From: Oscillospiraceae bacterium
GTDB taxonomy: Bacteria > Bacillota > Clostridia > Oscillospirales > Ruminococcaceae
Length of the DNA: 38,570 nt
Assembly: GCA_017828955.1 (NCBI GenBank)
Contig: JAGAJQ010000054.1
Span: forward strand, 1-38,570
Direction: 5' to 3'
The notes under the pieces were generated by a model. It made no database searches, was not told where the DNA came from, and worked only from the letters and a program-made list of their open reading frames with translations. Shown here one piece after another: positions 11,609 through 33,652 of the stretch. Numbering within the stretch: the first letter of the stretch is position 1; each line of letters begins with the position of its first letter. Both the position numbers and the translations under genes were made by a program.

Positions 11609-12937
11609 TCAATATTTCAATAAGTCTGAAGCTTCCGAAAATTCATCGGCAAGCCCTTCGTTCTTGATTGACATTCTTTCATACATGACTTCTTTTATAG
11701 AACCGTCAACTTCAATGAGAGTATTAAGAGTGTTGATATCCTCCATAGAAGCCGTTCCGCTGTTGTATTTATCGAGATAAGTGTCTATAACATTATCAAG
11801 AGTAGGTCGGAATGCCTGATTGTAATATACTATCGAACTCCAGTTATCCATATTTTTATCGAAGCCAGTTATTTTTCTGATAGTGTCTATTCCGTCGGCG
11901 ACAGTTTTAAGAGCCTTTGTTCCGGGTGTCATATCAAATACGGCATCCATAACCTTATCTCCTGCCCATTCCTTTGCATCCTTCATAACCATATCTGCTG
12001 TTTCAAAGAACTGGTCTGAATATTTTCTTTTGAGTTCAGATATAACCTGTTCAACGACAACAGGATTTTCAACCTGAGAAAATGCACTTTCAAGAGAGTC
12101 GAGATATTTAAGATTTTCCGAATAGTCATTCAAAAGATATTCGACAAATTCTGCACCTCTTTTTCCGTATTTCATAAACTTTCCGAGGTCATCCAGACCT
12201 ATTCCTGTCAGTTTAGATAATTCTTTCATCTCGCTGTCAGAAAGTTTTCCGCTTAAAAACAATTCGCCTATGTCCATTCCGTGATCTATAATATCTTTTC
12301 CGTCGTAAACGCTGTCAACGAAATCCTTATATCCACCGCTCAATATCTCATGTTGTCTGTGCTCGCATTCTTTCTGGATTGCAGAATGGATAACTTCCTT
12401 GATATGACCCACTTGAATTTCGTTAACCATATCTTTGCCTGTAATTGTATCCCATATTGAAACAACCATATTTTTGGTTTCATCCCAGGCATCATTGACA
12501 GCGGAACCGATAATGCTATGAGCGTTATAGTTTTTCTCTTTCCACATATCATAATTTTTATCATATTCTTTTCTGTTATAGAGATATGCGTCATATTTTG
12601 ATAATGTAGAAAATTCTTTTTCCGTTGCTTGTTCAAACATAGTGTTTATTGATTTTTTAACATTATATTCTGTTTCCGCAGTTTCGCCAATGCAAGCTCC
12701 GAGAATATCTCTGAGTTCAATTAATTCTTCTTTACATTTGACGAATTTATAAAGCTGTTCTAAAACCTCATCGTAGAAATGTCGTAAATTTTTATCCTGC
12801 ATCATATCACTGTGACATTCGAAGTTTGTGATAAGATTGACAGCAGTTGTTTTATGAGTTTCCTCAAGGTTTGATACGGATAAAGATAACTTATCTACCA
12901 TTGTGGACATAACTGTTGTATTCATTTTGTAAAGCAT
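11609..12937 (-). CDS. Hypothetical 442-aa soluble helical protein, last gene of the WXG operon (candidate T7SS substrate)
   Basis: RBS GGGGGA 6 nt upstream. No TM helix or signal peptide. Sits directly after two WXG100-size genes. LXG-like identity could not be established by eye. Confidence 0.6.
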   Translation of the reverse strand: MLYKMNTTVMSTMVDKLSLSVSNLEETHKTTAVNLITNFECHSDMMQDKNLRHFYDEVLEQLYKFVKCKEELIELRDILGACIGETAETEYNVKKSINTMFEQATEKEFSTLSKYDAYLYNRKEYDKNYDMWKEKNYNAHSIIGSAVNDAWDETKNMVVSIWDTITGKDMVNEIQVGHIKEVIHSAIQKECEHRQHEILSGGYKDFVDSVYDGKDIIDHGMDIGELFLSGKLSDSEMKELSKLTGIGLDDLGKFMKYGKRGAEFVEYLLNDYSENLKYLDSLESAFSQVENPVVVEQVISELKRKYSDQFFETADMVMKDAKEWAGDKVMDAVFDMTPGTKALKTVADGIDTIRKITGFDKNMDNWSSIVYYNQAFRPTLDNVIDTYLDKYNSGTASMEDINTLNTLIEVDGSIKEVMYERMSIKNEGLADEFSEASDLLKY

Positions 12938-12964
12938 ATTTTTTCCCCCTTTACATTATGATTG

Positions 12965-12984
12965 AAAAGGTCGGCTGACCTTTT
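12965..12984 (-). terminator. Intra-operon hairpin (possible attenuator after the WXG100 genes)
   Basis: AAAAGGTC / GACCTTTT stem with a 4-nt loop between the 107-aa gene and the 442-aa gene. Weak U-tract on the minus strand. Confidence 0.3.
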
Positions 12985-13010
12985 TCAGATAAACCGACCT
13001 CTATAAAAAA

Positions 13011-13334
13011 TCAGTTGTTGAACATTTTTGTTGTAGGAAGTCTGTCTACAGTACTTGTTGAATTGCTGTCTCCTTCTCTGTATAACTCTGCTGATGTTCT
13101 TAAATCCTGTATATGATTTGAAATATTATCGAGAGAAGCTGTGATTTCTCTTGTAACATTCTGATATTTGTCAACATAGTTTGTTCCTGACCGGCTCTTC
13201 CAGAAATCAGCGAGAGCGGTTACCTTTGATTTCATATCGCTCATAATAGCTTCCATTTCGTTCTTTTCTTTTTCAATCTGCGATGCTTTATTGTTTATTT
13301 CTTCAGTAGAAACTTTAATTACTAAATTACTCAT
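13011..13334 (-). CDS. WXG100-like small helical protein (107 aa)
   Basis: WXG100 size, a central FWKSRSG motif between two predicted helices, and adjacency to the esxA-like gene. C-terminal tail TTKMFNN. Confidence 0.65.
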   Translation of the reverse strand: MSNLVIKVSTEEINNKASQIEKEKNEMEAIMSDMKSKVTALADFWKSRSGTNYVDKYQNVTREITASLDNISNHIQDLRTSAELYREGDSNSTSTVDRLPTTKMFNN

Positions 13335-13368
13335 AATTCTGCGTCCTTTCGTTTATTTTATACTGGCA

Positions 13369-13683: not shown

Positions 13684-14646
13684 TTAATTATTTCCTATTA
13701 TAACCGCACCGTTCATATGCATATATCCATAATGCTGAAGGAATTCTTCAACCTGCATACCATGAACGGGAGCGTTGTCAACTGCTGCCATAGCGGACTC
13801 TAAAGAAAGGTCGTTTGCATAAAGTTTTGTTTCAAACCCTGCGCCCCAGGAATTATCATAGAATGTGATTTCGCCATCTTTATGTATTCCGTCTATAAAC
13901 ATTACGTGCCCATATTCTCCCGAGTCGAAAGAAACAACTATGTTTCGCAGTGGCTCTGTCTGATCCGACGCCATATATTCATTGATCATCTGTCTGAATC
14001 CGTCAACGCCCGTATATCTGTTTTCGGGTGCACCCGCGTAGTTATCAAACCATTGTCCTCCGCTTGTGTTTCCTACTGTTGCGAAGGGATAACCAAGCCC
14101 CTTTTTATGAAGACGGTACATAGTCGAGAATGTGCAGGACACCCAGCCTGATTCATCGTTGAATGGTGCAACAGCAGGATCGCCGCCTGAGGGGTCGTCC
14201 TGATAATAATATCCGCCTGCACCCGAATATCCGGTTGCTCCCGCAAGGCCTTGTGACGAATAATCCTTTGCCTTGTATCTGTCGATAACAGCATTTGAAG
14301 TCGGCGATGAAGCAGATGGTATTTTGGGTAATTTTGAAGCAAATGCTCCGAAAAGTCTTGAAGCTGCTTTATCTGCTTCGGTCATATTTATGATATATTG
14401 GTTTACTCTTTTTGATATTTCCTCAAGAGAATCAGATATATCTTTCAGTTCGCGAACAAGTTGGTTTATTTGTCTGCAATATTCTGCTGATGCCTGTGAT
14501 CTCCAAAACTCCTCTATTCGATGCGAAACTATATTCATACGTTCCGTTTCAGCGTTAATCTCAGCAGCTACTGTTCGTATCTCTTCCGAGAACCGCTGAG
14601 CCTCCATAGTATCAATAATGGCTTCCATTTGTTCTGAAAAATTCAT
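13684..14646 (-). CDS. WXG-like N-terminal domain fused to a CHAP/NlpC-P60-like peptidoglycan hydrolase domain
   Basis: The N-terminal ~100 aa is a helical hairpin with FWRSQASAEY, followed by a Gly/Ser/Tyr linker. The C-terminal domain has a Cys (WVSCTFSTMY), a His (YGHVMFIDG) and Asp-Asn (ITFYDNSW), spaced like a CHAP catalytic triad. Confidence 0.65.
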   Translation of the reverse strand: MNFSEQMEAIIDTMEAQRFSEEIRTVAAEINAETERMNIVSHRIEEFWRSQASAEYCRQINQLVRELKDISDSLEEISKRVNQYIINMTEADKAASRLFGAFASKLPKIPSASSPTSNAVIDRYKAKDYSSQGLAGATGYSGAGGYYYQDDPSGGDPAVAPFNDESGWVSCTFSTMYRLHKKGLGYPFATVGNTSGGQWFDNYAGAPENRYTGVDGFRQMINEYMASDQTEPLRNIVVSFDSGEYGHVMFIDGIHKDGEITFYDNSWGAGFETKLYANDLSLESAMAAVDNAPVHGMQVEEFLQHYGYMHMNGAVIIGNN

Positions 14647-14664: not shown

Positions 14665-15009
14665 TTAATTGCCAAACATTTTTTTGGTTGAAAAAACACT
14701 TTTCGGGATTATACCTTCTATTCCCTCAAAAATATTTGAATCGGCCGTTTCGTAGTCTATTCTTGACTGGATTATAAACTCTTTTTCTTTGTTCAGGTTA
14801 TTTTCAAGATTTAAAATCTTGTCTGATGTTTTGGCCGATTTTGAGTAATATTCTGCTTTGGCATCTGTGCCCCAATGACTTTCGTAATATTCTTTCAGAT
14901 TGTCATATTCTGATTCTAATTCTCCGATTTTTTCGGAAATTTCACCGAGCTTGTTTGCAACCTCTGTCATTACCTGAGGGTCAGAAATTATGTATTTCAG
15001 CATTTCCAT
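14665..15009 (-). CDS. WXG100-like small helical protein (114 aa)
   Basis: Central HWGTDAKAEY motif and helical heptad character. C-terminal tail TKKMFGN. RBS GAGGTG. Confidence 0.6.
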   Translation of the reverse strand: MEMLKYIISDPQVMTEVANKLGEISEKIGELESEYDNLKEYYESHWGTDAKAEYYSKSAKTSDKILNLENNLNKEKEFIIQSRIDYETADSNIFEGIEGIIPKSVFSTKKMFGN

Positions 15010-15025: not shown

Positions 15026-15415
15026 TTATCTGGAGCCACCGCCGCCACCGCCGAAGCTTCCTTCTCCGCCGCCGCTGAAACTTATCTGCGATGAATAAGC
15101 AACTCTGTTTCTTACTTTTGCGAGAACTTGTTTCTCGCATTCTTCGTATCTTGATATAGCTTTGTTGAGAATGTCTATTTCACTTTCTATACGACAAATA
15201 ATCGATTCGAATTTACATTTGGTTTGTTCTAATCTGTAAATCTGAAGTTCTCCTGCCATACCCTGCCATACCGAAGAGAGAAGATTTTTCTGATTGACAA
15301 ATTCATCGCGCAGTTCAACAACTTCTTGATGCTTTTTATCTAAGGCTGATTTCATATCTTTGAGTTGTTCAACATCCCAATAGATTTCATCGGAAAATAA
15401 TAAAGGGTTATACAT
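15026..15415 (-). CDS. WXG100-like protein with Gly-rich C-terminal tail
   Basis: WQGMAG motif and a C-terminus GGGEGSFGGGGGGSR. The listed ATG at 15421 sits only 2 nt from the GGAG of the RBS, so the second in-frame ATG at 15415 is preferred. Confidence 0.6.
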   Translation of the reverse strand: MYNPLLFSDEIYWDVEQLKDMKSALDKKHQEVVELRDEFVNQKNLLSSVWQGMAGELQIYRLEQTKCKFESIICRIESEIDILNKAISRYEECEKQVLAKVRNRVAYSSQISFSGGGEGSFGGGGGGSR

Positions 15416-15458
15416 TGTCATCGCTCCTTTCTGTTCGTTTTCTATATTCTACATCAAA

Positions 15459-15487: not shown

Positions 15488-15520
15488 ACAACCGATTTGA
15501 TGGGATAAAAGGTATCGCGA

Positions 15521-15574
15521 TGCATTTCAGGGCAGAAATCCTGCATTTCGTCAGGTTTTCAACAAATGCATTTT
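15521..15574. promoter_or_regulatory. Three phased direct repeats TGCATTTY (candidate LytTR-type activator site)
   Basis: TGCATTTC at 15521 and 15543, and TGCATTTT at 15567 (22- and 24-bp spacing). They lie in the divergent promoter region. An extended -10, TGATATGAT (15581-15589), follows on the plus strand. Confidence 0.3.
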
Positions 15575-15630
15575 AAAATGTGATATGATTGTGCTGTAAG
15601 ATACCTATTTATGTTAAAGGGGACATTTTT

Positions 15631-16542
15631 ATGCAGAAAAAATCAAAAATAATTATCATTTCGATAGTTTCGGCTATCCTTTTGATCGTCGGAGTTTTTA
15701 CCGCCATAGCGCTTACGGGCGCAGGGAATAATACAGAAAAAGTAACAACGGAAAAACTCTCTCTCGGACAGAAATTTCTTTTAGACCTCGAATATGACAA
15801 GGCTGTTGCGGAATTTCAGGCAGTTATTGATATCGAGCCTAAGAATGTTGACGCTTACATAGGCCTTGCGGATGCCTATATCGGAATGGGCGAAGAAGAA
15901 AAAGCCATTGAAACCCTCGAAAAAGGTCTTTCAGAGACAGGCGATGAAACTATCAGGGCGAAACTCGATGAGATGAAAAAGCCTGAGGAGACAACAGTGG
16001 AGGTTACTACAACACCCGAGGAGACGACAGCCAAAAAATCAGTCTGGCCGAGGAGGGAAGATCATAGCGATGGTTCTTATTCCATACTCGACCCCGATTC
16101 AAATGGAAATTTGATAATAAGTGATTACGAAGCTGACGGAACACTTTATCGTTATTCGATACACGAATACGATTACGATTCAAATGAGGAAAAAGTAAGT
16201 CGCTATAACCCCGATGGAACACTTAATAGTTATTCGATACACGAATACGATTCAAATGGGAATGAGATAAAAATGAGTTTTTACAACGGCGACGGAACAC
16301 TTGATGAGTATTGGATATCCGAATATGATTCAAATGGAAATAGGATAAAAGAAAGTTGGTACAACCCCGACGGAACACTTGATTATTACTCTATACACGA
16401 ATACGATTCAAATGGGAATGAGATAAAATCAAGTGATTACAACCCCGACGGAACACTTTTTTGTTATTCGATATCCGAATACGATTCAAATGGAAACAGG
16501 ATAAAAACAAGTCATTACTACCCCGACGGCACACCGATTTAA
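15631..16542 (+). CDS. Paralogue A: TM anchor + TPR module + Thr/Pro/Glu linker + YD-like repeats
   Basis: Start moved to MQKKSK (RBS AAAGGGGA), shared by all paralogues. TM helix IIIISIVSAILLIVGVFTAIALTG and TPR-like module KLSLGQKFLLDLEYDKAVAEFQAVIDIEPKNVDAYIGLADAYIGMGEEEKAIETLEKG. Five 26-aa repeats of the form EYDSNGNxIKxSxYNPDGTL. Confidence 0.85.
   Translation: MQKKSKIIIISIVSAILLIVGVFTAIALTGAGNNTEKVTTEKLSLGQKFLLDLEYDKAVAEFQAVIDIEPKNVDAYIGLADAYIGMGEEEKAIETLEKGLSETGDETIRAKLDEMKKPEETTVEVTTTPEETTAKKSVWPRREDHSDGSYSILDPDSNGNLIISDYEADGTLYRYSIHEYDYDSNEEKVSRYNPDGTLNSYSIHEYDSNGNEIKMSFYNGDGTLDEYWISEYDSNGNRIKESWYNPDGTLDYYSIHEYDSNGNEIKSSDYNPDGTLFCYSISEYDSNGNRIKTSHYYPDGTPI
16165..16539 (+). repeat. 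Intragenic tandem 78-bp (26-aa) repeats, about 5 units
   Basis: GAATA(C/T)GAT unit starts at 16165, 16243, 16321, 16399 and 16477, an exact 78-nt period. Confidence 0.85.
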
Positions 16543-16724: not shown

Positions 16725-16844
16725 TGTAACCAAATTGTAATAACTTTATGATAAACTGTAATCAATTTGTAATCGCATTGAAGTATAATGTATGGTATAA
16801 TCTGTAAAGGAGAAAAATTTTATTTTTTGGGGGAAGAAGAAAAA

Positions 16845-18173
16845 ATGAAAAAAATTATTATTGCAGTTCTCGCTTTAACACTCACATTCTCTATGACAGG
16901 ATGTTATAAACTGACAGAATTAAACCTTAATGAAAAAACAGAAACAACAACTACTATCATAGAGGGCGCTGATGTTCCTGACGGAGTTGTTATTACAGAG
17001 AATAAAGTCGACCTCGGCGATGGTGAATATCTTATAGAAGAACTCGACGAAAGAGGAAACCTTATCTGTAACAGATATTATTCTTCAGAGGACGTTCTTG
17101 AATATTATTCCACCTATGAATACAACGATATGGACCTTTGCACAAAAGAGATGCATTATGACGCAGAAGGAAACCTTGATATTTATTTTGAAACGGAATA
17201 TAACAACGACGGTTTTATAACAAAGAGAGCGACCTTTGAACCCAACGGAAGCTATCTTTCTTATGACCTATACGAATATGATGAAAATAATAACTGTATA
17301 AAAGAAATGAACTATAATGACGGCACAGAACTTTCATCATATCTGGTTTCGGAATATAATGAAATGAACCTTATTACAAAGACGGAACTTTTCAATCCCG
17401 ATGGAAGCAGTGTCTATACAGATACATATGAATATGACGAAAAAGGACAGCTTATAAAAGAAACTTATTACAACGGAAATAAAGAACTGACAGGCGAATG
17501 TGTATATAAATATGACGATGACGGGAATATTGTAAGCGAAATCCGCACCGATGAAAACGGAGAAAAGTATTTCGGATATTATGAAAGAAACGGAATATAT
17601 CTGGTTGAAACATGGGAGAATGAAGCCGGCGAAATTCTTTATAAATATGATTATGAAGACGGTGTTCTCAAAAGGGAATATTTTTACGAAAAAGGTGTTC
17701 TCACAAGTTATGAAGAACACATAGAAGAAAACGGAAATCACATTCTCATAAGAACATATGTTGATGAAACGGGAAATCCTACACAGTCAGAAACATACAA
17801 CGATTATGGCTATAAAGAAATCGAAGTATACTTTGATGAAATCGGCGAAGTAAAAGACTATTACACATATGAATACAACGGCGACTGGCTCATTGAAAGA
17901 CGCGATTATAAAAATGCAGCAGGCGATACATTATGGTTCGATACCTATGAATACGATGAAAATTTAAGACTTATAAAAGACAGTTGCTATTTCCCCGAAA
18001 GTGAGTTACAATCATATCAGGTTATGGAATACGACGGAAACGGAAACGAGGCAAAGCGTTCTGTATATAATGCCGACGGCACACTTCAGACATACCGCGA
18101 AATGCAGTATGACGATTATGGAAATCTCATTTCTTTCAAGGATTATAACGCCGACGGCACACCCATTTTTTAA
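16845..18173 (+). CDS. Lipoprotein with extended YD-like repeat domain (442 aa)
   Basis: Start moved to MKKIIIAVLALTLTFSMTGC (lipobox) after a GGGGGAAG RBS. Many YEYDxxGxLIKE / YNxDGT repeats. Confidence 0.8.
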   Translation: MKKIIIAVLALTLTFSMTGCYKLTELNLNEKTETTTTIIEGADVPDGVVITENKVDLGDGEYLIEELDERGNLICNRYYSSEDVLEYYSTYEYNDMDLCTKEMHYDAEGNLDIYFETEYNNDGFITKRATFEPNGSYLSYDLYEYDENNNCIKEMNYNDGTELSSYLVSEYNEMNLITKTELFNPDGSSVYTDTYEYDEKGQLIKETYYNGNKELTGECVYKYDDDGNIVSEIRTDENGEKYFGYYERNGIYLVETWENEAGEILYKYDYEDGVLKREYFYEKGVLTSYEEHIEENGNHILIRTYVDETGNPTQSETYNDYGYKEIEVYFDEIGEVKDYYTYEYNGDWLIERRDYKNAAGDTLWFDTYEYDENLRLIKDSCYFPESELQSYQVMEYDGNGNEAKRSVYNADGTLQTYREMQYDDYGNLISFKDYNADGTPIF

Positions 18174-18184
18174 GGAGAAATAAA

Positions 18185-18973
18185 ATGAAGAAATTCATGA
18201 CAGTATCCATAATTTTCGCAATGCTTCTGTCTTTAACGGCTTGTGAAAAAACGGAAGAAAAGCACAACGCAGAAACAACAACTGCTATAACAACAGAAGA
18301 AGTTGCTACAACGGCTGAAACAACTGCTGTGACAACGGAAGAAGTTACAACAACTTCCGAAGAAACTATAACAGTAGCGGAAGAAACAACGGTTGCAACG
18401 GCAGAAACAAACGTTGCGGTAACAACCGCAGCGACCACTGCCGAAAAGAAAGGCCCTAAAACAGAAAGAACCGATGATGAAAAAAACGGCGTATACTACA
18501 TAAAGGAATATGACGATAAGGGCCGTGAAATTGCGGCTTACGGATACCGTATGAAAGACGATTCGCTTATTGCTTACTATACAAAAAAGTATGACAGCAA
18601 TAATGGTTACGAGATGAAAGTCTATGACGGGAATAAGAAACTCACAGGGCATGAATTCCGTGATGCAAAAGACAACCTTGTGAGAGTAAATGTTTTTTCT
18701 ACAAACGGATATGTTCTTTATAAAAGAAACGATAACGGAAGACTTATAAAAGAAGAACATTATAATGAAAACGGAGGTCTTGTCAGTTACTGGACATATA
18801 CTCCCGATGAAAACAGCAAGACAGTAAAGGCGGAGTATTATGATGTTGCGGGAGCGTTTACATATTACTATTCGGGAACGATAAACGAAAGAGGACAGTA
18901 TATACTCAACAAAAAACACTCCGCTGACGGAACAATTATACAGGAACTGGCGCCCGGAGAACAATTTACTTAA
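18185..18973 (+). CDS. Lipoprotein: Thr/Glu-rich linker + YD-like repeats
   Basis: Lipobox LLSLTAC and a TTEEV-type linker. The junction KGPKTERTD is shared with paralogues B and D. Repeats such as KEYDDKGRE and KKYDSNNGY. Confidence 0.8.
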   Translation: MKKFMTVSIIFAMLLSLTACEKTEEKHNAETTTAITTEEVATTAETTAVTTEEVTTTSEETITVAEETTVATAETNVAVTTAATTAEKKGPKTERTDDEKNGVYYIKEYDDKGREIAAYGYRMKDDSLIAYYTKKYDSNNGYEMKVYDGNKKLTGHEFRDAKDNLVRVNVFSTNGYVLYKRNDNGRLIKEEHYNENGGLVSYWTYTPDENSKTVKAEYYDVAGAFTYYYSGTINERGQYILNKKHSADGTIIQELAPGEQFT

Positions 18974-18994
18974 TATAGAGTAAGGAAGACAGAT

Positions 18995-19741
18995 ATGAAA
19001 AAAACAGAAATTATAGTTATAGTAACAATAGTGGTTCTCGCAATAGCGGCGATTGTTGTAGGTATCTTCGCTTTTAAGGGAACGGAAGAAACATCTGCAC
19101 CCAAGGAAGATAAAATCGGGAATTTCTTCTCTGAACTTTTTGAGAAAAAGCCCGAAGATGAAGATGTTGACCCCATTGAACCCGTGGAAACAACAGAAGA
19201 ACCCGATGAAACAGAACCCGAACCCGAAGACGATGAACCTTATGGTGATATTGATGATTTCTTCGAATATGATGACAACGGAAATATAATAGAAGAAGAT
19301 TACGGTGATTATGTTTTAAGACACGAATATGATCACAAAAACCGTAAGATAAGAACTATCACATACGACGGAAAGGGCGATATCCAGTATTGGAGCGATT
19401 TTGAATACAAAGGCGACAGTGACAAGCCCTCAAGAAAAGAAACCAAAGATGCCAACGATGAACATATCTCAACAATTATATATGAATACGGAAGCGACGG
19501 TTCATATACCGAATCAAGCTATCTCCCCAATGGTATTCTTATGGATAAAACATATTTTGATAAATCGGGATTTATAGTAAGGGCAGAATATTATTATAAG
19601 AATTATATGGCTCAGCTTTATGAATTCGACCCCGAAACATACTGTGCAAAGCAGACTGATTATGACGAAGACGGAAATGTCATCTATTATGCCGAATACG
19701 ACGAAAACGGCGATCTTGTAAAAGAAGAAACATATGATTAA
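18995..19741 (+). CDS. TM-anchored protein: acidic Pro/Glu/Asp linker + YD-like repeats
   Basis: N-terminal TM helix IIVIVTIVVLAIAAIVVGIFAF. Repeats FEYDDNGNIIEE, YDEDGNVIYYAEYDENGDLVKEE. Confidence 0.8.
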   Translation: MKKTEIIVIVTIVVLAIAAIVVGIFAFKGTEETSAPKEDKIGNFFSELFEKKPEDEDVDPIEPVETTEEPDETEPEPEDDEPYGDIDDFFEYDDNGNIIEEDYGDYVLRHEYDHKNRKIRTITYDGKGDIQYWSDFEYKGDSDKPSRKETKDANDEHISTIIYEYGSDGSYTESSYLPNGILMDKTYFDKSGFIVRAEYYYKNYMAQLYEFDPETYCAKQTDYDEDGNVIYYAEYDENGDLVKEETYD

Positions 19742-25910: not shown

Positions 25911-26066
25911 ATGATTGAATTTATAAAGAATCTTTCTGTCGGCGAGCTTATGTTCTATGGCGGAATTTCAGGCGCAGGGCTTTGCGTTATCGCGATGATA
26001 GTGGGAATTCCCCTTACAAACCTCGGCAAAAAGCAGGTTAAGAACAAAATAGACAAGGAGTATTAA
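25911..26066 (+). CDS. Small membrane protein (51 aa), absent from the ORF track
   Basis: RBS AAGGAG 8 nt upstream of the ATG. Sequence MIEFIKNLSVGELMFYGGISGAGLCVIAMIVGIPLTNLGKKQVKNKIDKEY has one TM helix and a basic tail. It exactly fills the gap between the kinase gene and paralogue D. Confidence 0.5.
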   Translation: MIEFIKNLSVGELMFYGGISGAGLCVIAMIVGIPLTNLGKKQVKNKIDKEY

Positions 26067-26069
26067 ACT

Positions 26070-27176
26070 ATGCAGAAGAAATCAAAAATAATTATCATTT
26101 CGATAGTTTCGGCTATCCTTTTGATCGTCGGAGTTTTTACTGCCATATCACTTACGGGTGCAGGAAATAATACAGAAAAAGTAACAACGGAAAAACTCTC
26201 TCTCGGGCAGAAATTTTTACTCGACCTTGAATACGACAAGGCCGTTGCGGAATTTCAGGCAGTTATTGATATCGAGCCTAAGAATGTTGACGCTTACATA
26301 GGGCTTGCGGATGCCTATATCGGAATGGGCGAAGAAGAAAAGGCAATAGAAACTCTCGAAAAAGGTTTTATGGAAACAGGCGATGAAACTATCAGGGCGA
26401 AACTCGATGAGATTAAAGAGGTTGAGGAGACGACAGCGGAGGTTACTACTACTCCCGAGGTGACGACAACTCCGCCTGAAACGACAACAGAGGAGGTAAC
26501 GACAACACCTGAGGTTACGACTACTCCCGAGGTTACTACAACACCCGAGGTGACAACAACTGAGGAAATAACTACAACTCCCGAGGTTACTACAACCCTA
26601 AAAGGTCCGAGAACGGAGAGGGTAGATTTTGATGACGGAAGTTATCTGATTCACGAATATGACAAAGATGGTCAGTGTTTAAAAGAAACAGTATATTATT
26701 CAAATGGCGAATCCTATGGAGAAGCCACTAACGGCTTAACTGGTTGGTGGAATAATAAGAAAAATGAAACAGTTGAATACCGGTTTATTCATTTTAATAA
26801 ATGGATACGCGAGTTTGATTCAAATGGAAATATGATAAAAGTAAGTTATTACAACGCCGACGGAACGCTTAGTTATTACTATATAAACGAATACGATTCA
26901 AATGGAAATAGGATAAAAGAAAGTAGTTACAACGGCGACGGAACACTTATAGTTATATTAGAATACGATTCAAATGGAAATAGGATAAAAGACAGTTGGT
27001 ACCACTCCGACGGAACACTTTATAATTACTCTATACACGAATACGATTCAAATGGAAATAGGATAAAAGAAAGTTGGTACACCCCCGACGGAACACTTTA
27101 TTTGATATCCGAATACGATTCAAATGGAAATAGGATAAAAGAAAGTTGGTACAACCCCGACGGAACACCGATGTAA
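26070..27176 (+). CDS. Paralogue D: TM anchor + TPR module + long PEVTTT linker + YD-like repeats
   Basis: The N-terminal module is by eye about 90% identical in nucleotides to paralogue A. Junction KGPRTERVD, then repeats EYDSNGNRIKESWY. Confidence 0.85.
   Translation: MQKKSKIIIISIVSAILLIVGVFTAISLTGAGNNTEKVTTEKLSLGQKFLLDLEYDKAVAEFQAVIDIEPKNVDAYIGLADAYIGMGEEEKAIETLEKGFMETGDETIRAKLDEIKEVEETTAEVTTTPEVTTTPPETTTEEVTTTPEVTTTPEVTTTPEVTTTEEITTTPEVTTTLKGPRTERVDFDDGSYLIHEYDKDGQCLKETVYYSNGESYGEATNGLTGWWNNKKNETVEYRFIHFNKWIREFDSNGNMIKVSYYNADGTLSYYYINEYDSNGNRIKESSYNGDGTLIVILEYDSNGNRIKDSWYHSDGTLYNYSIHEYDSNGNRIKESWYTPDGTLYLISEYDSNGNRIKESWYNPDGTPM
26421..26598 (+). repeat. Thr/Pro/Glu/Val low-complexity tandem repeat (PEVTTT units)
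   Basis: EVTTTPEVTTTPPETTTEEVTTTPEVTTTPEVTTTPEVTTTEEITTTPEVTTT, encoded by degenerate 18-nt units. Confidence 0.8.
26811..27173 (+). repeat. Intragenic tandem 72/78-bp repeats, about 5 units
   Basis: Unit starts at 26811, 26889, 26961, 27039 and 27111. The string GAATACGATTCAAATGGAAATAGGATAAAAGA recurs four times, at the last four unit starts. Confidence 0.85.
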
Positions 27177-27202: not shown

Positions 27203-30200
27203 ATGGCATATATATTTTATTTCAACTTCAAAGAAAATGTTTATGAATACCCGTTGCCTGCTGTCAACAACAGGGTCATAAGCATTGATATATCTGAATT
27301 CTCATCGGAAAAAGGCGTTATAAATCTTGAAATCTTTGACGGCGTATGGAAACTCCTCCCCTCAGAAGATTTCAACTTCTCAGTGAACAACTCAATAATA
27401 ACAGAGAAGAAAATCGAAGACGGCGACAAAATCACAGCGAAGAAAAAACGCGGGGAACTCACCTTTATGATTTTTGCGCTCAAAGCCTCTGAAAACACAA
27501 GCGTATACAGAAAATGGTCGCTCGAAGGGGTAAACAGGGTTACTGTCGGTATGGATGAAAACTGCGATATCGTTTATAAAGAACAGTTTGTCAGCCATAA
27601 ACACGCAACTATCGAAAGAAAAGGCTCGGGCTTTTTCCTTACAGACAATTCAACAAACGGAACATTTTTAAATGGCTCGAAAATATCGGGCGAAACCCCT
27701 CTTTCTATCTTTGACACAATATACATACTGGGTCTTAAAATAATCTTTTTAGGCGAATATATAGCAACAAACAAGATTTTGGAACTCGGCGTTTCGCTTA
27801 CTGAAATATGCGATATAAACAATGATTATGAGCCTTATGAGGATGAATCCGACTTTTCTCGTTCACCGAGAAGAATAGAGCCTCTCGATGAAGAAGTAAT
27901 TGAGATAGAATCCCCTCCCTCACAGCATAAGGCTTCGAGTCAGCCTCTTATTTTCATAATAGGCCCTTCGGTAACAATGCCACTGCCGATTATGATTTCT
28001 GTCATCATAAATATGATGTCATCGGGCAACACATCAAATCCGCTTATGTATTTAGGAACGGTAATTTCCGTTGTATGTTCGGGATTCATAGGCGCGGGTT
28101 GGGCACTCGCACATCAGTTTTATAACAAGAAGACAGTTAAAAAACAGGAAGAAGCAAGAGTAAAGGCATATGGCGAATATATTGCCAAAAACGAAAATCT
28201 TCTCTCTGAAAAACAGGATAAGAACAAGCGTATTATAGATGAACAGTTTTTATCCTCAGATAAACTTATGAAAAAGGTTTTCAAGGATAAGACTTTTTTA
28301 TGGAACAGAAATATAAACCACGCCGATTTCTCGAAAATCCGTTTCGGAACAGGCTCTGTAAAACTTCCTAACGGAATATCTGTTCCCAAGGAAAGATTTT
28401 CTATGAATGACGACACCCTTGCCGACAAGCCGAGAGAGCTTTTCGACCGTTACAACACAATGGAAGACTGCGCATATACCGCAAGACTCAACGACAGCAA
28501 GATATGGGGCGTTATCGGTGAATATAAGAATGTTATGAATATCGTCAATAACATCGCCGTTCAGCTTTCGGCGCTCCATAGTTATAGCGATATCAAGATA
28601 GCGATTCTCTGTAAAGAAAACGAAAAGGAAAAATATCTCTGGATGAAGTGGCTTCCTCATATATTCTCATCCGACAGAAAAGTAAGAATGTTCGGATGCG
28701 ACAGCAACTCTGTAAAGAATGTATGCAATTTCCTCGGCGGAGAACTCCGTTCAAGAGAGGAGAATGCAGAGGGTGCATTATCAAGGGATTTAAGATTTCT
28801 CCCTCATTATTTCGTTATCTGCACAGACAAGTCCATCCTTGAAAAGAACAGTCTTTCAAAATACATAATGAATAATTCCGAGCTCGGTTTTACATTCATT
28901 CTTGCATACGAAAAGATGGACAAACTCCCCAATGAATGTAAGGTCATCATACAGCATGACGAAACATACAGCGGAATATATTCGCTTTCATCAACTATCG
29001 ACGAAACAAACTCTGTAAATTTCGATAACGTTGATGTAAAATACGCAGAAAAATATGCAAGAGCAATAAGCGGACTTTATCTTACAGAATTCACACAGGG
29101 CGAAATCCCCGCTTCTATCGATTATCTCGATATGCTCGGCATAGGAAAATTCGAACAATGGAACCTTATCAGAAAATACAAGGAAAACCGTTCTTATGAA
29201 AGTCTTGCTTCGTTTATAGGAATAGGAACAGGTAACCGCCCCGTTGTTCTTGATATCAGCGAAAAGATGCATGGTCCTCATGGTCTTATTGCGGGAACAA
29301 CAGGCTCGGGTAAGAGTGAAACAATACAGACATTTATTCTTTCGCTTATTTTAAATTACAGCCCCGATGAAGTTGCGTTTATCCTTATTGACTATAAGGG
29401 TGGAGGAATGGCAGCCGCTTTTGAAGGAATACCTCACCTTGCGGGAATTATCACAAACCTCGGCGGAGATACAGGCGAGGGTGAGATTGACGAAAACCTT
29501 ACAAGACGTGCACTTATCTCGATAAAGAGTGAAATAAAGAGAAGACAGCAGATTTTCAACCGCTATAAAGTAAACCATATAAACCAGTATATAAAGATGT
29601 ACAGAGGCGGTGCTGTCAGCGAAGCATTACCCCATTTGATTATTATATCGGACGAATTTGCAGAACTTAAACACAAACAGCCTGAATTCATCAAAGAACT
29701 TGTCAGCGTTGCCAGAGTAGGAAGAAGCCTCGGCGTTCATCTTATACTTGCAACACAGAAACCTTCGGGGGTTGTCGATGAAGAAATCTGGAGTAACTCA
29801 CGTTTCAAAATCTGTCTTAAAGTTCAGGACAAGCAGGACAGTATAGGAATGCTCAAACGCCCCGAGGCAGCATATCTTGTCAATACGGGACGCGCTTATA
29901 TGCAGATAGGAAACGATGAGATTTTTGATATGTTCCAGTCGGGATATTCGGGTGCTGAATATATGCCGACAGATGAATTTGTTTCTTCAAAGGATAAGGA
30001 AGTCATTATGATTGATATCGACGGAACATATCTTGAAGAAAACACAATGACAGGAAAAGGAAATCAGACAGGTATCTCACAGCTTAAAGCGGGTATTGAT
30101 TATGTAATAAATGTTTCGGCAATGAGTGGTTTCAAACCGACAAGAAAACTTTGGAATGAATGTCTGCCTTCGCTTATCGGTCTTGATAAACTTGATGTTT

Positions 30201-31798
30201 CGGGCATTGATTTTAAAAGCGGGCTCATCTCCTGCTATGGTATCATTGATAACCCTGAAAAACAGTCACAGTATCCTGCTGTCGTTGATGTTTCAAAGAC
30301 ATCTCATATACTTGTTTCAGGTATGTCAGGCTCAGGAAAATCAACATTCTTACAGACAATGGTATATTCTCTTGTTTCAAGATATACTCCCGATGAAATA
30401 CAGTTCTACTTCATAGATTTTTCAAGCAGAACAACAAGAAAATTTGAAAAGCTTCCTCATTGCGGAGGAGTTGTTTTCCAGGAACACAACGAACTCATAG
30501 AAAGACTTTTCAGACTTCTTGAAAACGAATGTGATGAAAGAAGAAGAATTTTCGATAAGGCAGATGCGGGAAGTTTCGGTGAATATACAAAGAAGAATAA
30601 AATGCCTATGATACTTGTTGTAATCGACAATTATGCAGGTTTTTCAGAAGGGTATCCCGAACTTGCAGAAAAACTCGCAGGGTTTTCAAGAGACTGCCTT
30701 AAATACGGCATCCAGCTTGTTATTTCAGCGAATAATACAAACGATGTGAAATACAAGACAATGCAGAATATCGGATATAAAATCGCACTCCGCCTTTCAG
30801 ACCGTTATGGATATAACGAAATACTCGGTGGTGCGCCCGAATTCACACCTTCAAAATATGCAGGCCGTGGTCTTGTAAAAGAAGACGGTATTTTAGAATT
30901 CCAGACAGCTGTTCCGTTTGAAATCGAAGATGAAACAGAACGTTCTGAAAAGATGATAAAGGAATTTTCAGATATCGCAAAGAAATACAAGAAACACACT
31001 CCCGCAAAGAGAATTCCGTCTATCCCCAGGGATGAAATATATGCTGATTTCTATGAAAAGAATAAGGCGGATGGTATGATTCCTTTAGGATACGATACAA
31101 ACGATATCTCACCTCTTTCTCTTTCGAGACGTGATACATTCTGTCTTGCTGTCGGTGCTTCTGAAGAAAAGAGTATATCGCTTATGTTCAGTAACTTCAC
31201 TTACTGTGCGAAACAGTCGGGCGCTGTTGTATGGTATTTTAAAACATCGACAGATATGCTCTGTAAACCTGAATATGTCGACAGGGTTTATACAAAGACA
31301 AAAATCGAAGATTTTCTTAAAGCCTTGCAGAAAGAGTTTGAAACTGCATCTGAAATAAGAGGGAAATATAAGGATTCTATGAGTGTAAACGAGATGGAAA
31401 CAAAGGTTGTCGAAGAAAAGAAGATGCTCTATATCTTTATTGATAATATGGCAGAATTTTGTAAGATAATATATAATCCCAAAAATGAATATCCGCTTAA
31501 TAATATTGTTGAGGAGACATTCAGATATGGCGAAAAGAGAGGGGTAACCTTTATAGTTGGCTTCGGAACTGATAGCTATATCGACGCTATACACAGCACA
31601 GCCTGCAGGAATTTCCTCTTTAATAAGACAATTCTTCATATCGGCGGACATCTTGATCAGCAGAAACTTTATTCTTCATCATTGCCTTATAATATCCAGA
31701 ACAGACCTCTTGATTTACAGACAGGCTATTTCTTCAACGGAACAACCGAAAGACAGATATTCATACCATTGTCCGAACGAGGTGAAAACGATGCTTGA
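27203..31798 (+). CDS. essC: T7SS FtsK/SpoIIIE-family ATPase EssC (N-terminal FHA region, 2 TM helices, 3 ATPase domains)
   Basis: FHA-like segment VTVGMDENCDIVYKEQFVSHKHATIE...STNGTFLNG and two TM helices. D1 has GTTGSGKSE and IIISDEFAEL. D2 has GMSGSGKST and VVIDNYA. D3 has the degenerate P-loop GASEEKS. The 1531-aa length is typical of EssC/YukB. Confidence 0.9.
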   Translation: MAYIFYFNFKENVYEYPLPAVNNRVISIDISEFSSEKGVINLEIFDGVWKLLPSEDFNFSVNNSIITEKKIEDGDKITAKKKRGELTFMIFALKASENTSVYRKWSLEGVNRVTVGMDENCDIVYKEQFVSHKHATIERKGSGFFLTDNSTNGTFLNGSKISGETPLSIFDTIYILGLKIIFLGEYIATNKILELGVSLTEICDINNDYEPYEDESDFSRSPRRIEPLDEEVIEIESPPSQHKASSQPLIFIIGPSVTMPLPIMISVIINMMSSGNTSNPLMYLGTVISVVCSGFIGAGWALAHQFYNKKTVKKQEEARVKAYGEYIAKNENLLSEKQDKNKRIIDEQFLSSDKLMKKVFKDKTFLWNRNINHADFSKIRFGTGSVKLPNGISVPKERFSMNDDTLADKPRELFDRYNTMEDCAYTARLNDSKIWGVIGEYKNVMNIVNNIAVQLSALHSYSDIKIAILCKENEKEKYLWMKWLPHIFSSDRKVRMFGCDSNSVKNVCNFLGGELRSREENAEGALSRDLRFLPHYFVICTDKSILEKNSLSKYIMNNSELGFTFILAYEKMDKLPNECKVIIQHDETYSGIYSLSSTIDETNSVNFDNVDVKYAEKYARAISGLYLTEFTQGEIPASIDYLDMLGIGKFEQWNLIRKYKENRSYESLASFIGIGTGNRPVVLDISEKMHGPHGLIAGTTGSGKSETIQTFILSLILNYSPDEVAFILIDYKGGGMAAAFEGIPHLAGIITNLGGDTGEGEIDENLTRRALISIKSEIKRRQQIFNRYKVNHINQYIKMYRGGAVSEALPHLIIISDEFAELKHKQPEFIKELVSVARVGRSLGVHLILATQKPSGVVDEEIWSNSRFKICLKVQDKQDSIGMLKRPEAAYLVNTGRAYMQIGNDEIFDMFQSGYSGAEYMPTDEFVSSKDKEVIMIDIDGTYLEENTMTGKGNQTGISQLKAGIDYVINVSAMSGFKPTRKLWNECLPSLIGLDKLDVSGIDFKSGLISCYGIIDNPEKQSQYPAVVDVSKTSHILVSGMSGSGKSTFLQTMVYSLVSRYTPDEIQFYFIDFSSRTTRKFEKLPHCGGVVFQEHNELIERLFRLLENECDERRRIFDKADAGSFGEYTKKNKMPMILVVIDNYAGFSEGYPELAEKLAGFSRDCLKYGIQLVISANNTNDVKYKTMQNIGYKIALRLSDRYGYNEILGGAPEFTPSKYAGRGLVKEDGILEFQTAVPFEIEDETERSEKMIKEFSDIAKKYKKHTPAKRIPSIPRDEIYADFYEKNKADGMIPLGYDTNDISPLSLSRRDTFCLAVGASEEKSISLMFSNFTYCAKQSGAVVWYFKTSTDMLCKPEYVDRVYTKTKIEDFLKALQKEFETASEIRGKYKDSMSVNEMETKVVEEKKMLYIFIDNMAEFCKIIYNPKNEYPLNNIVEETFRYGEKRGVTFIVGFGTDSYIDAIHSTACRNFLFNKTILHIGGHLDQQKLYSSSLPYNIQNRPLDLQTGYFFNGTTERQIFIPLSERGENDA

Positions 31799-32522
31799 TG
31801 TTTATATCTATGACGCGGATATTTCAAGGCATACTACTGTTCAGAGCTATTGTTTCAGATTTTTTATGAGGAAAAATCTGACATCCGAAATAAAACTCAT
31901 AACAGCCGACGCTATGGAAGCAGGCAGAGTTTTTTCAGAAGAGGAGAAGCAATCTGTTTTTATAATAAGCTGTGATGAATATTCCGATTATCTTATAAAA
32001 TCTATGAGAAAAGGGAATGCCGAAAATTATCTGATAATTGTTGCAAACGATTTTGATGATATTCTTAAATATCTGAAACCCGGTCATAAACCATCAGGAT
32101 TTATATTAAGACCTATGAAACCCTATGACATAGAAAAACTTATGGGAGATATAATTTCGGATTATAAATCGAAAAAAGAAAAGCAGGAGTTTGATTGTTT
32201 TGTTTTCAAGATGAAGTCAACGGAATACAGCATTCCGTTTGACTCGATAATATCCTTTGAAAGCGGAAACAAGAAAATAAAACTGAAAACCGCCGAAAAG
32301 GAATATTCCTTTTACAGCACATTCGATGATATACAGAACACCCTCCCCGATGGGTTTATAAGGGTGCATAAAAGCTATATCATCAATATGGCGCATATAA
32401 AAGAAATTCATTATGCCGATTCTGAAATTATTTTAAGCGGTGGAACAAGCGTTTATTTTTCAAGGACATACCGCAGTGTTGTCAGAGAACTTTTCAACAT
32501 AAACGCAGAAACAGTCTCATAG
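31791..32522 (+). CDS. LytTR-family DNA-binding protein with atypical receiver-like N-terminal domain
   Basis: ATG at 31791 follows RBS GAGGTGA and overlaps the essC stop (ATGCTTGA). The listed start at 31557 lies inside essC. The C-terminal LytTR motif is FIRVHKSYIINMAHIKEI. The N-terminal domain has VYIYDAD and VFIISCD but lacks the conserved receiver Thr/Ser and Lys (LIIVAN, FILRP). Confidence 0.75.
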   Translation: MLDVYIYDADISRHTTVQSYCFRFFMRKNLTSEIKLITADAMEAGRVFSEEEKQSVFIISCDEYSDYLIKSMRKGNAENYLIIVANDFDDILKYLKPGHKPSGFILRPMKPYDIEKLMGDIISDYKSKKEKQEFDCFVFKMKSTEYSIPFDSIISFESGNKKIKLKTAEKEYSFYSTFDDIQNTLPDGFIRVHKSYIINMAHIKEIHYADSEIILSGGTSVYFSRTYRSVVRELFNINAETVS

Positions 32523-32534
32523 GAGGAAATTTAT

Positions 32535-32792
32535 ATGACAAAGATACTTGTTGAAATAAATTGCCCCTCAACTGCAAGAAACTATGAATTCTGGATTTCA
32601 AAGCAGATGATTGTAAAGGACGTTATAAAAATCTGCAAAGAAGAAATCTGTATGACAGAGGGCAATAAGAAGATTTTCAACGATAACGAAAATATGGTGC
32701 TTTTTTCACAGAGGCTCCGTATTCCGCTTAATGAAAACTATACCGCAACCGAAGCGGGAATCATAAGCGGAGATAAACTTATGATTGTTTAA
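32535..32792 (+). CDS. esaB: YukD/EsaB-like ubiquitin-fold T7SS protein (85 aa)
   Basis: Size, a beta-grasp-like pattern (KILVEINCP, YEFWISKQMIVKDV, ISGDKLMIV at the C-terminus) and position beside essC. RBS AGGAGG. Confidence 0.65.
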   Translation: MTKILVEINCPSTARNYEFWISKQMIVKDVIKICKEEICMTEGNKKIFNDNENMVLFSQRLRIPLNENYTATEAGIISGDKLMIV

Positions 32793-32806
32793 AGAGGACG
32801 AATTTT

Positions 32807-33652
32807 ATGCAGAAAAAATCAAAAATAATCATAATTTCGGTAGTTTCGGCAATTCTTTTAGTTGTAGGAGTTTTTACCGCCATAGCACTCACAGGTAAGG
32901 GAAACAGCATTGAAAAAGAGGTCGGCGAAAAGCTCTCTCTCGGGCAGAAATTCTTGCTTGACCTCGAATACGACAAGGCCGTTGCGGAATTTCAGGCAGT
33001 TATTGATATCGAGCCTAAGAATGTTGACGCTTATATAGGCCTTGCTGATGCCTATATCGGCATGGGCGAAGAAGAAAAGGCAATAGAAACCCTCGAAAAA
33101 GGTTTTATGGAGACAGGCGATGAAAAGATTCAGGCGAAACTCGAAGAGATGAAAACCCCCGAAGAAACAACCGCAGAGGTAACCACAACACCCGAGGAGA
33201 CGACAACTGTTCCTGAAACTACAACAACAGTTGCGACGACAGCCAAAAAATCAGGCTGGACAGAGAGGAAAGATTATAGCGATGGTTCTTATCGGATAAT
33301 CGAATACGATTCGGACGGGCATATGATAAAATCAAGTTATTACAACGCTGACGGAACGCTTAATTATTACTATATAAACGAATACGATTCAAAAGGAATT
33401 TTGATAAAAAATAGTTTTTACAATGCCGACGGCATACTTGATTGCTATTATACTTATGAATATTATTCCTATCCTGGCAAATACAAAAAAGCATATAAAT
33501 ATCTTCCTGACGGAACACTTGACAGTTATTCTTTATTTGAATATTATGAATCCGGTTACATCAAAAAACAGACATGGTATTACCAATCGGGTGGCGAAGG
33601 CTGGCATGATTGGGAAGACGGAGAAGCCATGTGGGCTCATGCGATTTGGTAA
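32807..33652 (+). CDS. Paralogue E: TM anchor + TPR module + Thr-rich linker + YD-like repeats
   Basis: Same MQKKSKIIIIS start and TPR module. Repeats EYDSDGHMIKSSYYNADGTL. The divergent Trp-rich C-terminus is WYYQSGGEGWHDWEDGEAMWAHAIW. Confidence 0.85.
   Translation: MQKKSKIIIISVVSAILLVVGVFTAIALTGKGNSIEKEVGEKLSLGQKFLLDLEYDKAVAEFQAVIDIEPKNVDAYIGLADAYIGMGEEEKAIETLEKGFMETGDEKIQAKLEEMKTPEETTAEVTTTPEETTTVPETTTTVATTAKKSGWTERKDYSDGSYRIIEYDSDGHMIKSSYYNADGTLNYYYINEYDSKGILIKNSFYNADGILDCYYTYEYYSYPGKYKKAYKYLPDGTLDSYSLFEYYESGYIKKQTWYYQSGGEGWHDWEDGEAMWAHAIW

Follow-up and report, generated by a model that had tools for sequence, protein, structure and literature searches.

Introduction

What is known of type VII secretion systems (T7SSs) in Firmicutes stems almost wholly from the T7SSb systems of Staphylococcus aureus and Bacillus subtilis, and T7SSs have been implicated in interbacterial competition. 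Here we describe a T7SS locus at positions 11609-33652 of a 38.6-kb contig from an Oscillospiraceae bacterium (JAGAJQ010000054.1), the whole of which was analysed and is called the window below. The locus encodes an EssC-type ATPase together with a membrane Ser/Thr kinase, a PP2C phosphatase and a separate FHA-domain protein. We consider it likely that this is a complete locus of the kinase-associated T7SS class (Garrett et al. 2024), of unnamed lineage and layout, with a proposed gating by phosphorylation.

The closest described systems are the subtypes T7SSc to T7SSj, which were defined from a survey of RefSeq genomes by Garrett, Higginson & Palmer 2024 (PMC11217815). Several of these subtypes are without the T7SSb membrane proteins and have component D, a transmembrane (TM) Ser/Thr kinase; F, a PPM phosphatase; J, an FHA protein; and H and K, which are small TM proteins. 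In T7SSj the kinase, TsjD, ends in a TPR tail, and a LytTR protein, TsiN, belongs to T7SSi; control by threonine phosphorylation and an analogy to type VI secretion have already been proposed (PMC11217815). Genomes with T7SSc have no T7SSa or T7SSb parts elsewhere, T7SSc being the sole variant for which that check was reported (PMC11217815). The survey was limited to RefSeq and, as far as the parts of the source covered here go, does not extend to uncultured gut and rumen lineages of Oscillospiraceae, Ruminococcus and Lachnospiraceae (PMC11217815). The taxa of the clade to which the window belongs are absent from the text of the 2024 paper and from the covered parts of its supplement (PMC11217815), and our search of the literature found no later-named subtype and no description of this clade.

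A type VII secretion core in a ten-gene operon

Gene positions were taken from a listing of open reading frames (ORFs) and from family scans with Pfam and NCBIfam. Judged by terminator-like hairpins and one perfect sigma-70 promoter, the locus holds five transcription units: a minus-strand WXG operon, a lone TM-TPR-DUF2963 gene (15631-16542), a group of three genes (16788-19741) for lipoproteins or TM proteins with YD-like repeats, a small minus-strand XRE regulator, and a core operon of ten genes (20285-33652). The core operon is made up as follows.

20215..20243 (+): sigma-70 promoter of the core operon (TTGACA-17-TATAAT), consensus matched at 12/12 positions
20285..21442 (+): TM-TPR-DUF2963 surface protein, 385 aa; DUF2963 E 1.1e-40 over 7 stretches, TPR_19, TM at residues 7-25
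21461..22126 (+): 2TM-FHA protein, 221 aa, TsxJ-like role; FHA E 8.2e-18, NCBIfam FhaB/FipA E 3.4e-13
22140..23624 (+): PP2C phosphatase-TM-TPR-DUF2963 protein, 494 aa, TsxF-like; PP2C_2 E 4.6e-14, NCBIfam Stp1/IreP E 1.2e-39
23682..25898 (+): Ser/Thr kinase-TM-extracellular TPR protein, 738 aa, TsxD-like; Pkinase E 4.3e-38 and TPR families
25911..26066 (+): single-TM peptide, 51 aa, MFYGG motif, TsxH/K-like; TM at residues 13-31
26070..27176 (+): TM-TPR-(PT-rich linker)-DUF2963 surface protein, 368 aa; DUF2963 E 1.8e-29, TPR_19, TM at residues 7-25
27203..31798 (+): EssC/TsxC FtsK-SpoIIIE ATPase, 1531 aa, FHA domain at the N-terminus, 2 TM segments; NCBIfam TIGR03928, FHA, FtsK_SpoIIIE
31791..32522 (+): LytTR DNA-binding protein, 243 aa, with an atypical receiver-like N-domain, TsiN-like; LytTR E 4e-22
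32535..32792 (+): YukD/EsaB-family ubiquitin-like protein (TsxB), 85 aa; family profile
32807..33652 (+): TM-TPR-DUF2963 surface protein, 281 aa, last gene of the core operon; TPR_19, DUF2963, hairpin at 33666-33701

The universal T7SS core is present: an EssC ATPase, a YukD-like protein and WXG100 proteins. EssC, the sole ORF of the window longer than 750 aa, scores 1066.7 bits against NCBIfam TIGR03928, the curated EssC model, whose cut-off is 778.4. Its FHA domain spans residues 113-175; it also has two FtsK_SpoIIIE stretches, and Walker A motifs lie at 701 and 1043. Within the FHA domain (in the region of residues 115-152), the Arg of the GR motif gives way to Met in the window, and most relatives have K, C or S at this position; SxxH and the Asn are retained.

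Taken alone, the 85-aa protein has no match in Pfam and reaches the NCBIfam YukD model at only E=0.082. However, a profile of this protein and six orthologues matches ORFs of 81-91 aa just 3' of essC in 69-79 loci, and Pfam YukD is matched by 21/30 sampled small ORFs that follow essC (best E 2.4e-9). Profile searches of the PDB with the same family gave weak ubiquitin-like or YukD matches only (E 0.05-0.5), and a single-sequence structure model, at a predicted local distance difference test score (pLDDT) of 49, was not usable. The assignment therefore rests on family profiles, by which the protein is, through family membership only, a member of the YukD family.

EssB/YukC, EsaA/YueB and EssA gave no match in Pfam and NCBIfam at E<=0.1 in 11609-33652, nor in Pfam at E<=0.001 in the flanks, and none was found within 10 kb of essC in the relatives examined. 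For EssA this is an absence by sequence similarity, which a strongly diverged EssA could escape. Encoded in this locus without EssB is a kinase that has intact motifs and the topology of the EssB pseudokinase.

These results bear on a preliminary description of the same DNA, which had reported an FHA-FtsK/SpoIIIE ATPase of 1531 aa, an 85-aa YukD-like gene and no EsaA, EssA or EssB. The ATPase is confirmed by a score above the TIGR03928 cut-off and the YukD-like gene is upheld through its family profile. Scans of the locus and its flanks bear out the missing components, with WXG, YukD-family and FtsK_SpoIIIE proteins found among the window's ORFs and EssB, EsaA and EssA not found. The membrane and regulatory genes that it listed (TM-FHA, TM-PP2C, TM-Ser/Thr kinase, 51-aa peptide, LytTR and four TM-TPR paralogues) all lie where it had placed them.

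A kinase, a phosphatase and an FHA protein beside essC

The Ser/Thr kinase has its TM helix at residues 350-368 and intact catalytic motifs. In the PP2C protein, with a TM helix at 247-265, the motifs DGMGGH35, GDSR119 and TDG186 are intact. The 2TM-FHA protein has TM helices at 9-27 and 35-53 and a canonical phosphothreonine motif (GR148, SRRH165, SSNRT185; GR/SxxH/N); it has no match to DUF6382 in Pfam. Hydropathy bears out the membrane anchors, and the topology predicted from it makes the kinase, PP2C and FHA domains intracellular and every TPR module extracellular.

The 51-aa peptide always follows directly after the kinase in four related loci (L001, L002, L004 and L005; loci are designated by L numbers throughout). 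Its MFYGG-TM motif and its post-kinase position are common to the N-termini of proteins of 147-189 aa in T7SSe-like loci. At two loci with 42-46% EssC identity (L004 21307-22815, L005 22751-24238), the FHA protein is a VWA-FHA fusion of ~500 aa, which recalls TscE, the vWA component of T7SSc.

Conservation of the locus in relatives

Homologues of EssC fall into at least 83 protein clusters and are 37-96% identical to it, nearly all over most of its length. The closest relatives by EssC are a Ruminococcus sp. metagenome-assembled genome (MAG) at 81% and an Oscillospiraceae MAG at 69%, the latter also seen in a metagenome of pig gut; below these comes a broad group with 42-47% identity. The neighbourhood of EssC is conserved from 42 to 81% EssC identity, under the MAG labels Ruminococcus, Oscillospiraceae and Provencibacterium. 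In relatives at 81, 69, 46, 43 and 42%, essC is flanked by the genes for the kinase, TM peptide, TM-TPR proteins, YukD-like protein, FHA protein and PP2C and by 4-5 WXG genes. The LytTR gene lies 3' of essC in the relatives at 81, 69, 46 and 42%, and not in the one at 43%. A profile matrix of six window-clade loci gave the kinase in 6/6, PP2C in 6/6, the extra FHA protein in 6/6 and the TPR module in 6/6 (28 ORFs), with the LytTR protein and the 51-aa peptide each in 5/6.

Because the set is syntenic in relatives, the co-occurrence of these genes is not a matter of chance, and on this comparison the layout is common in gut Clostridia. The neighbourhood survey is in line with the preliminary description: kinase, phosphatase, FHA protein, TM peptide, LytTR and TM-TPR genes are kept beside essC in relatives, and no EsaA, EssA or EssB homologue was found nearby.

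An EssC clade distinct from the named subtypes

For the named subtypes we used the N-terminal ~620-640 residues of TsxC given in Figure S2 of PMC11217815, read by machine from a PDF and thus possibly containing errors, and compared them with the N-terminal 680 aa of EssC. Over this region the window EssC is 27.5% identical to TsiC, 26.7% to TsfC, 26.0% to TsjC, 25.9% to TseC and 23.0% to S. aureus EssC, and the references are 23-31% identical among themselves, or 24-31% when TsiC, TseC, TsfC and TsjC are taken alone. TsjC, at 136 bits, scores lowest among the FHA-bearing variants e, f, i and j; S. aureus EssC reaches 87 bits. Among the matches listed, T7SSe-like loci (Neobacillus, Bacillus, Paenibacillus) are 38-70% identical to TseC, and the T7SSi-like loci L015 and L018 are 39-40% identical to TsiC. 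No Clostridium T7SSj loci occur among the matches listed from a contig scan with an EssC profile, which are 30-40% identical.

In a neighbour-joining tree (Poisson distance, 100 bootstraps), the window clade and the T7SSi clade were each monophyletic in 100/100 bootstraps, and the T7SSe clade was separate from the window clade. By these sequence comparisons the window EssC is a clade of its own, about as far from each named subtype as those are from one another. The preliminary description had called the architecture apparently undescribed, and this stands only in part. Variants with a kinase, a phosphatase and an FHA protein and without the T7SSb membrane proteins were published in 2024, so "undescribed" was overstated, since T7SSc-j already include such kinase-linked variants. 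The exact component set and the EssC clade, however, are not among subtypes a-j. Hence the general idea is known, and the exact layout and the EssC clade are unnamed.

The WXG operon and its candidate cargo

The WXG operon runs on the minus strand from 15421 to 11609, with products in the order 131, 114, 320, 97 and 107 aa and then a 442-aa helical protein.

15026..15421 (-): WXG-type protein, 131 aa, WQG at residue 52, Gly-rich C-terminus; WXG100 19.3 bits, locus-family profile E 7.3e-13
14665..15009 (-): WXG-type protein, 114 aa, tail ...FSTKKMFGN; WXG100 23 bits (sub-threshold), locus-family profile E 8.5e-14
13684..14646 (-): WXG-CHAP fusion, 320 aa (N-terminal WXG, C-terminal CHAP peptidoglycan hydrolase); CHAP 30.3 bits (cut-off 26), WXG100 26.6 bits
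13369..13662 (-): WXG100 protein, 97 aa, EsxA-like, WDG at residue 43; Pfam WXG100 E 2.6e-10, TIGR03930 54.9 bits, above cut-off
13011..13334 (-): WXG100 protein, 107 aa, tail ...LPTTKMFNN; Pfam WXG100 E 3.4e-13, TIGR03930
11609..12937 (-): soluble all-helical protein, 442 aa, last gene of the operon; no Pfam or NCBIfam family, no TM

The Pfam threshold is passed by two of the five WXG proteins (107 aa and 97 aa), the other three being sub-threshold, and all 5/5 match a profile from related loci at E 1e-11 to 1e-23. In the WXG-CHAP protein, the catalytic Cys171 and His247 of the CHAP domain are present, and its L091 orthologue (309 aa) also has a CHAP domain. A divergent operon of five WXG-type genes had been seen in the preliminary description. 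The five genes are there, but one of them is the WXG-CHAP fusion, and the sixth gene, for the 442-aa protein, had been overlooked. The six genes are kept as a block in the Ruminococcus relative, the 442-aa gene again at the operon end.

Five homologues of the 442-aa protein were found. An AlphaFold2 model from a 5-sequence alignment was all helices, with a pLDDT of 46, and was not usable. An LXG toxin is one conceivable reading of the protein, though it has no Pfam support and no immunity gene lies next to it. We regard it as a candidate secreted substrate or partner.

The WXG ORFs of the window were compared at their C-termini with those of L002, L004-L007, L014, L024, L058, L064 and L087. 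In each locus two WXG proteins share an extreme C-terminal tail with the pattern L-[S/P]-x-x-[D/K]-hydrophobic-[F/I/V], examples being ...LPTTKMFNN, ...FSTKKMFGN, ...LSTNDIF and ...LSSDVIV. A third WXG protein per locus belongs to a Gly-rich tail class that recurs across loci. Since two WXG proteins per locus carry the shared tail, two heterodimeric WXG pairs are suggested, and the tail is plausibly an export signal on one partner of each.

The LytTR protein and a candidate operator

The start of the LytTR gene overlaps the essC stop by 8 nt, and the gene is kept directly after essC in relatives. In the alignment, the acceptor Asp of its N-domain is present in Lachnospiraceae relatives and is not conserved in the window clade. 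On this account, the essC-coupled protein looks like a pseudo-receiver. Within the divergent promoter region lies a candidate site for its binding.

15520..15589 (+): candidate LytTR operator and promoter; MTGCATTTY direct repeats at 15520, 15541 and 15566, extended -10 TGATATGAT 33 nt past the second box

The repeats are 21 and 25 bp apart, and the box pair occurred in 0/100 shuffles. The same box-N13-box-N33-TATAAT geometry is seen at L004 17483-17550, L058 16747-16814 and L087 16662-16729. At those three loci it is found ahead of the WXG operon; its counterpart in the window points toward the first TM-TPR-DUF2963 gene. All four loci with this geometry also carry a LytTR gene adjacent to essC. 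A less strict search, for TGCATTT pairs, gave noisy results (29 pairs/1.8 Mb), and we retained solely the exact pair of boxes and the geometry from box to minus 10.

Polymorphic surface proteins with a shared TPR module

Besides the three stand-alone copies in the core operon, the locus has a fourth TM-TPR-DUF2963 gene and a unit of YD-like genes.

15631..16542 (+): TM-TPR-DUF2963 surface protein, 303 aa, own transcription unit; TPR_19, DUF2963, TM at residues 7-25, terminator 16550-16571
16788..19741 (+): 461-aa lipoprotein with YD-like repeats, 262-aa lipoprotein and 248-aa TM protein; weak RHS_repeat and MORN_2 matches, lipoprotein-type N-termini

The three-gene YD-like unit ends at a terminator at 19744-19777, has similar genes in L002 and L064, and adds three paralogues to those that had been listed in the preliminary description. 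A 300-nt module encoding the TM helix and TPR occurs five times in the window, at 15630-15929, 20284-20583, 22865-23164, 26069-26368 and 32806-33105. Nucleotide identity is 85-93% among the four stand-alone genes and 66% for the copy in the PP2C gene. The DUF2963 parts consist of 78-nt tandem units, which, with the module copies, points to recent duplication or gene conversion. The module is also related to the kinase ectodomain. It is found 4-5 times per locus in 6/6 window-clade loci and recurs in other EssC clades (L014, L016, L050, L053, L055, L064, L081). The outer domain X of these proteins in relatives is LRR, beta-propeller, PASTA and WG repeats, a YD shell or transglutaminase. By these comparisons the TM-TPR-X proteins are a conserved, polymorphic surface protein family. 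Outside the island, 6 kb upstream of the locus, lies an ORF of 155 aa with DUF2963/RHS-repeat matches (5355-5822, -).

Although we treat these proteins as linked to the secretion machine, it is possible, if somewhat unlikely, that the TM-TPR-DUF2963 paralogues and YD-like lipoproteins are polymorphic adhesins or cell-wall proteins that travel or are co-regulated with the T7SS and are neither machine parts nor sensors. Free variation of the outer domains across relatives would fit such a role, as would the recent duplication of the module, the separate transcription unit of one copy and the occurrence of a DUF2963 ORF outside the island. On the other hand, the module is present in several copies at every window-clade locus and again in other EssC clades, the core operon contains three stand-alone copies, two of which stand immediately next to the essC-LytTR-yukD block, and the same module is fused to PP2C and related to the kinase ectodomain.

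A further reading is a contact- or ligand-sensing T7SS, which we consider unlikely. Here, interchangeable TM-TPR-X receptors (X = YD/DUF2963, LRR, beta-propeller, PASTA, transglutaminase) would sit, by way of the juxtamembrane TPR module that they have in common, on the TPR kinase/phosphatase pair, surface binding would lead to threonine phosphorylation and so to gating of EssC through the FHA proteins, and the pseudo-receiver LytTR protein would tune WXG and surface genes from the operator.

Other features of the window

Two further regulatory features belong to, or adjoin, the locus.

19858..20169 (-): XRE-type HTH regulator, 103 aa; Pfam HTH_3, position kept in L001 and L088
33708..35760 (-): AgrC-like GHKL histidine kinase, 457 aa, with a receiver-LytTR response regulator, 235 aa; Pfam

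In the window the AgrC-like/LytTR pair flanks the core operon; the Ruminococcus sp. relative has it separating the core operon from the WXG operon (L088 21703-23763; L091 5354-7414). This placement suggests a second regulatory input, possibly of quorum type and possibly linked to the locus. Adjoining the pair is a 403-aa BTAD-domain transcriptional activator (35849-37060, -), its C-terminal half unassigned. An ABC transporter set (ATPase, ABC-2 permease, ABC_transp_aux/DUF7088 protein and DUF4340 protein) occupies 401-5003 (+), and a CotH kinase-like protein (583 aa), a DUF4956 protein (223 aa) and a VTC domain protein (223 aa), seemingly with no relation to the T7SS, are encoded at 6010-9133 (-). 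An Rfam scan of the window returned no RNA family.

A proposed phosphorylation switch

We favor the reading of this locus as a kinase-associated T7SS that is probably gated by threonine phosphorylation, by analogy with type VI secretion. In this scheme the kinase, with its EssB-pseudokinase topology, would phosphorylate threonines on a component of the machine. The phosphothreonines would be bound by the 2TM-FHA protein through its canonical FHA domain, and perhaps by EssC through its degenerate one, and the EssC channel would thereby be assembled or switched on; PP2C would reset the switch, in parallel to the type VI secretion pathway of PpkA, PppA and Fha. The TM-TPR-X proteins may dock, via the common TPR module, on the TPR ectodomains of kinase and phosphatase, so that surface signals enter the switch, and the LytTR protein may drive transcription from the TGCATTTY direct repeats. 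The exported cargo would comprise two WXG heterodimers, the WXG-CHAP cell-wall hydrolase and the 442-aa helical protein. In S. aureus, the CHAP hydrolase EssH is reported to open the cell's own wall; the WXG-CHAP protein could do likewise or could attack neighbouring cells. As the preliminary description proposed, the interleaved proteins may be structural "missing parts" of the T7SS; this is an inference.

Several points weigh against this picture. In contrast to the 2TM-FHA protein, EssC may be unable to bind phosphothreonine through its own FHA domain, because the Arg of the GR motif is not conserved there. The gating scheme names no phosphorylation target, and co-occurrence and a common module are the sole basis for the part given to the TM-TPR-X proteins. 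In the closest relative, no LytTR boxes were seen in intergenic regions. The absence of EssB and EsaA covers the 38.6-kb window of this genome. With regard to lineage, the deep branching of EssC is not firm; TsiC was the nearest reference in 55/100 bootstraps and TsjC in 0/100. The TsxC references are both partial (N-terminal) and machine-read. Used as a query, the TsjC fragment taken from the PDF failed to bring up the real TsjC, and for this reason the T7SSj comparison rests on transcribed N-terminal sequences.

The locus adds to the known T7SSs an extra, well-conserved layout that is common in uncultured gut and rumen lineages. It also offers handles that can be tested: a kinase with intact motifs in the place of EssB, a canonical FHA partner, a shared TPR docking module, a candidate LytTR operator and a candidate WXG export tail. 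If the phosphorylation switch is real, it would explain when these bacteria fire their T7SS. If the contact-sensing scheme holds, type VII secretion would have a new sensory front end, and a widespread one among gut Clostridia.

Comparison with known systems

With T7SSe and T7SSj the locus shares an FHA-bearing EssC-type ATPase, a YukD-like protein, at least two WXG100 proteins, a phosphatase of the PPM family, a free-standing FHA protein, a small single-TM protein and a membrane Ser/Thr kinase with an extracellular C-terminal domain, and, like them, it has no EssB, EsaA or EssA. Components A, B, C, D and F, a J-like protein and a K/H-like peptide are thus held in common. The kinase-TM-TPR architecture of TsjD in T7SSj is matched by the window kinase, at domain level only. 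T7SSi (Vallitalea) is alike in its FHA-bearing EssC, its YukD-like protein and its LytTR-type TsiN beside the ATPase gene, and TsiC is the nearest reference by EssC N-terminus. One might therefore take the locus for a diverged member of T7SSj, T7SSe or T7SSi, for which the 2024 classification suffices, and the motif that the 51-aa peptide shares with the post-kinase protein of T7SSe-like loci adds to this case.

We nevertheless think membership in a named subtype quite improbable. T7SSe and T7SSj have TsxI, a large protein with a Sec signal, Ig-like domains and a C-terminal TM, and no such protein is found in the window, where EssC is the only ORF of that size class (>750 aa), or in window-clade relatives. 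Their TsxJ consists of DUF6382 with an FHA domain at the C-terminus, whereas here two N-terminal TM helices replace DUF6382, and more distant relatives have VWA-FHA. Their TsxF is cytoplasmic, but the window PP2C is membrane-anchored and carries a surface TPR-DUF2963 module. The locus differs from both further in its essC-coupled LytTR gene, in its four to five TM-TPR-X surface proteins, a family not in the descriptions of the 2024 subtypes (PMC11217815), and in an EssC that falls outside both clades. T7SSi, for its part, has the EspG-like TsiG and the P-loop protein TsiM with a C-terminal TM, and is without the true kinase/phosphatase/FHA set. Neither TsiG nor TsiM was detected in the locus by Pfam, in which no P-loop protein other than EssC came up; this search was by sequence families only, which an EspG-like fold could escape. 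The level of EssC identity to each reference is that seen between subtypes, whereas among the matches listed the true T7SSe-like and T7SSi-like loci stand at 38-70% and 39-40% to their references, and the window and T7SSi clades are each monophyletic in all bootstraps.

T7SSb of S. aureus and B. subtilis resembles the locus in having an EssC with an N-terminal FHA region, an EsxA-type WXG100 protein, EsaB/YukD and a CHAP hydrolase associated with secretion. It differs in having EssB, EsaA and EssA, which are absent here, a kinase with intact catalytic motifs taking the place of the EssB pseudokinase, and in its CHAP hydrolase EssH, which is Sec-exported, whereas here CHAP is fused to a WXG domain. 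That the locus is an ordinary T7SSb with EssB, EsaA and EssA elsewhere in the genome, and with general envelope-signalling neighbours, is highly improbable: although the view covers only 38.6 kb, EssC passes a T7SSb-trained NCBIfam model and the PP2C and PASTA-kinase pair of L007 could be a housekeeping pair, the kinase, PP2C, FHA and TM peptide genes stay beside essC from 42 to 81% EssC identity under differing MAG labels, relatives lack the three proteins within 10 kb, T7SSc genomes are without T7SSa or T7SSb parts elsewhere (PMC11217815), and the N-terminal region of EssC is 23% identical (87 bits) to that of S. aureus.

The kinase-associated reading finds its closest functional counterpart in the PpkA/PppA/Fha proteins of type VI secretion, where the secretion cluster likewise encodes an FHA protein alongside a membrane kinase and a PP2C phosphatase. 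These proteins offer a working model of how secretion could be gated at the post-translational level. The machines are unrelated, and the cell here is Gram-positive, so the likeness is a functional analogy only.

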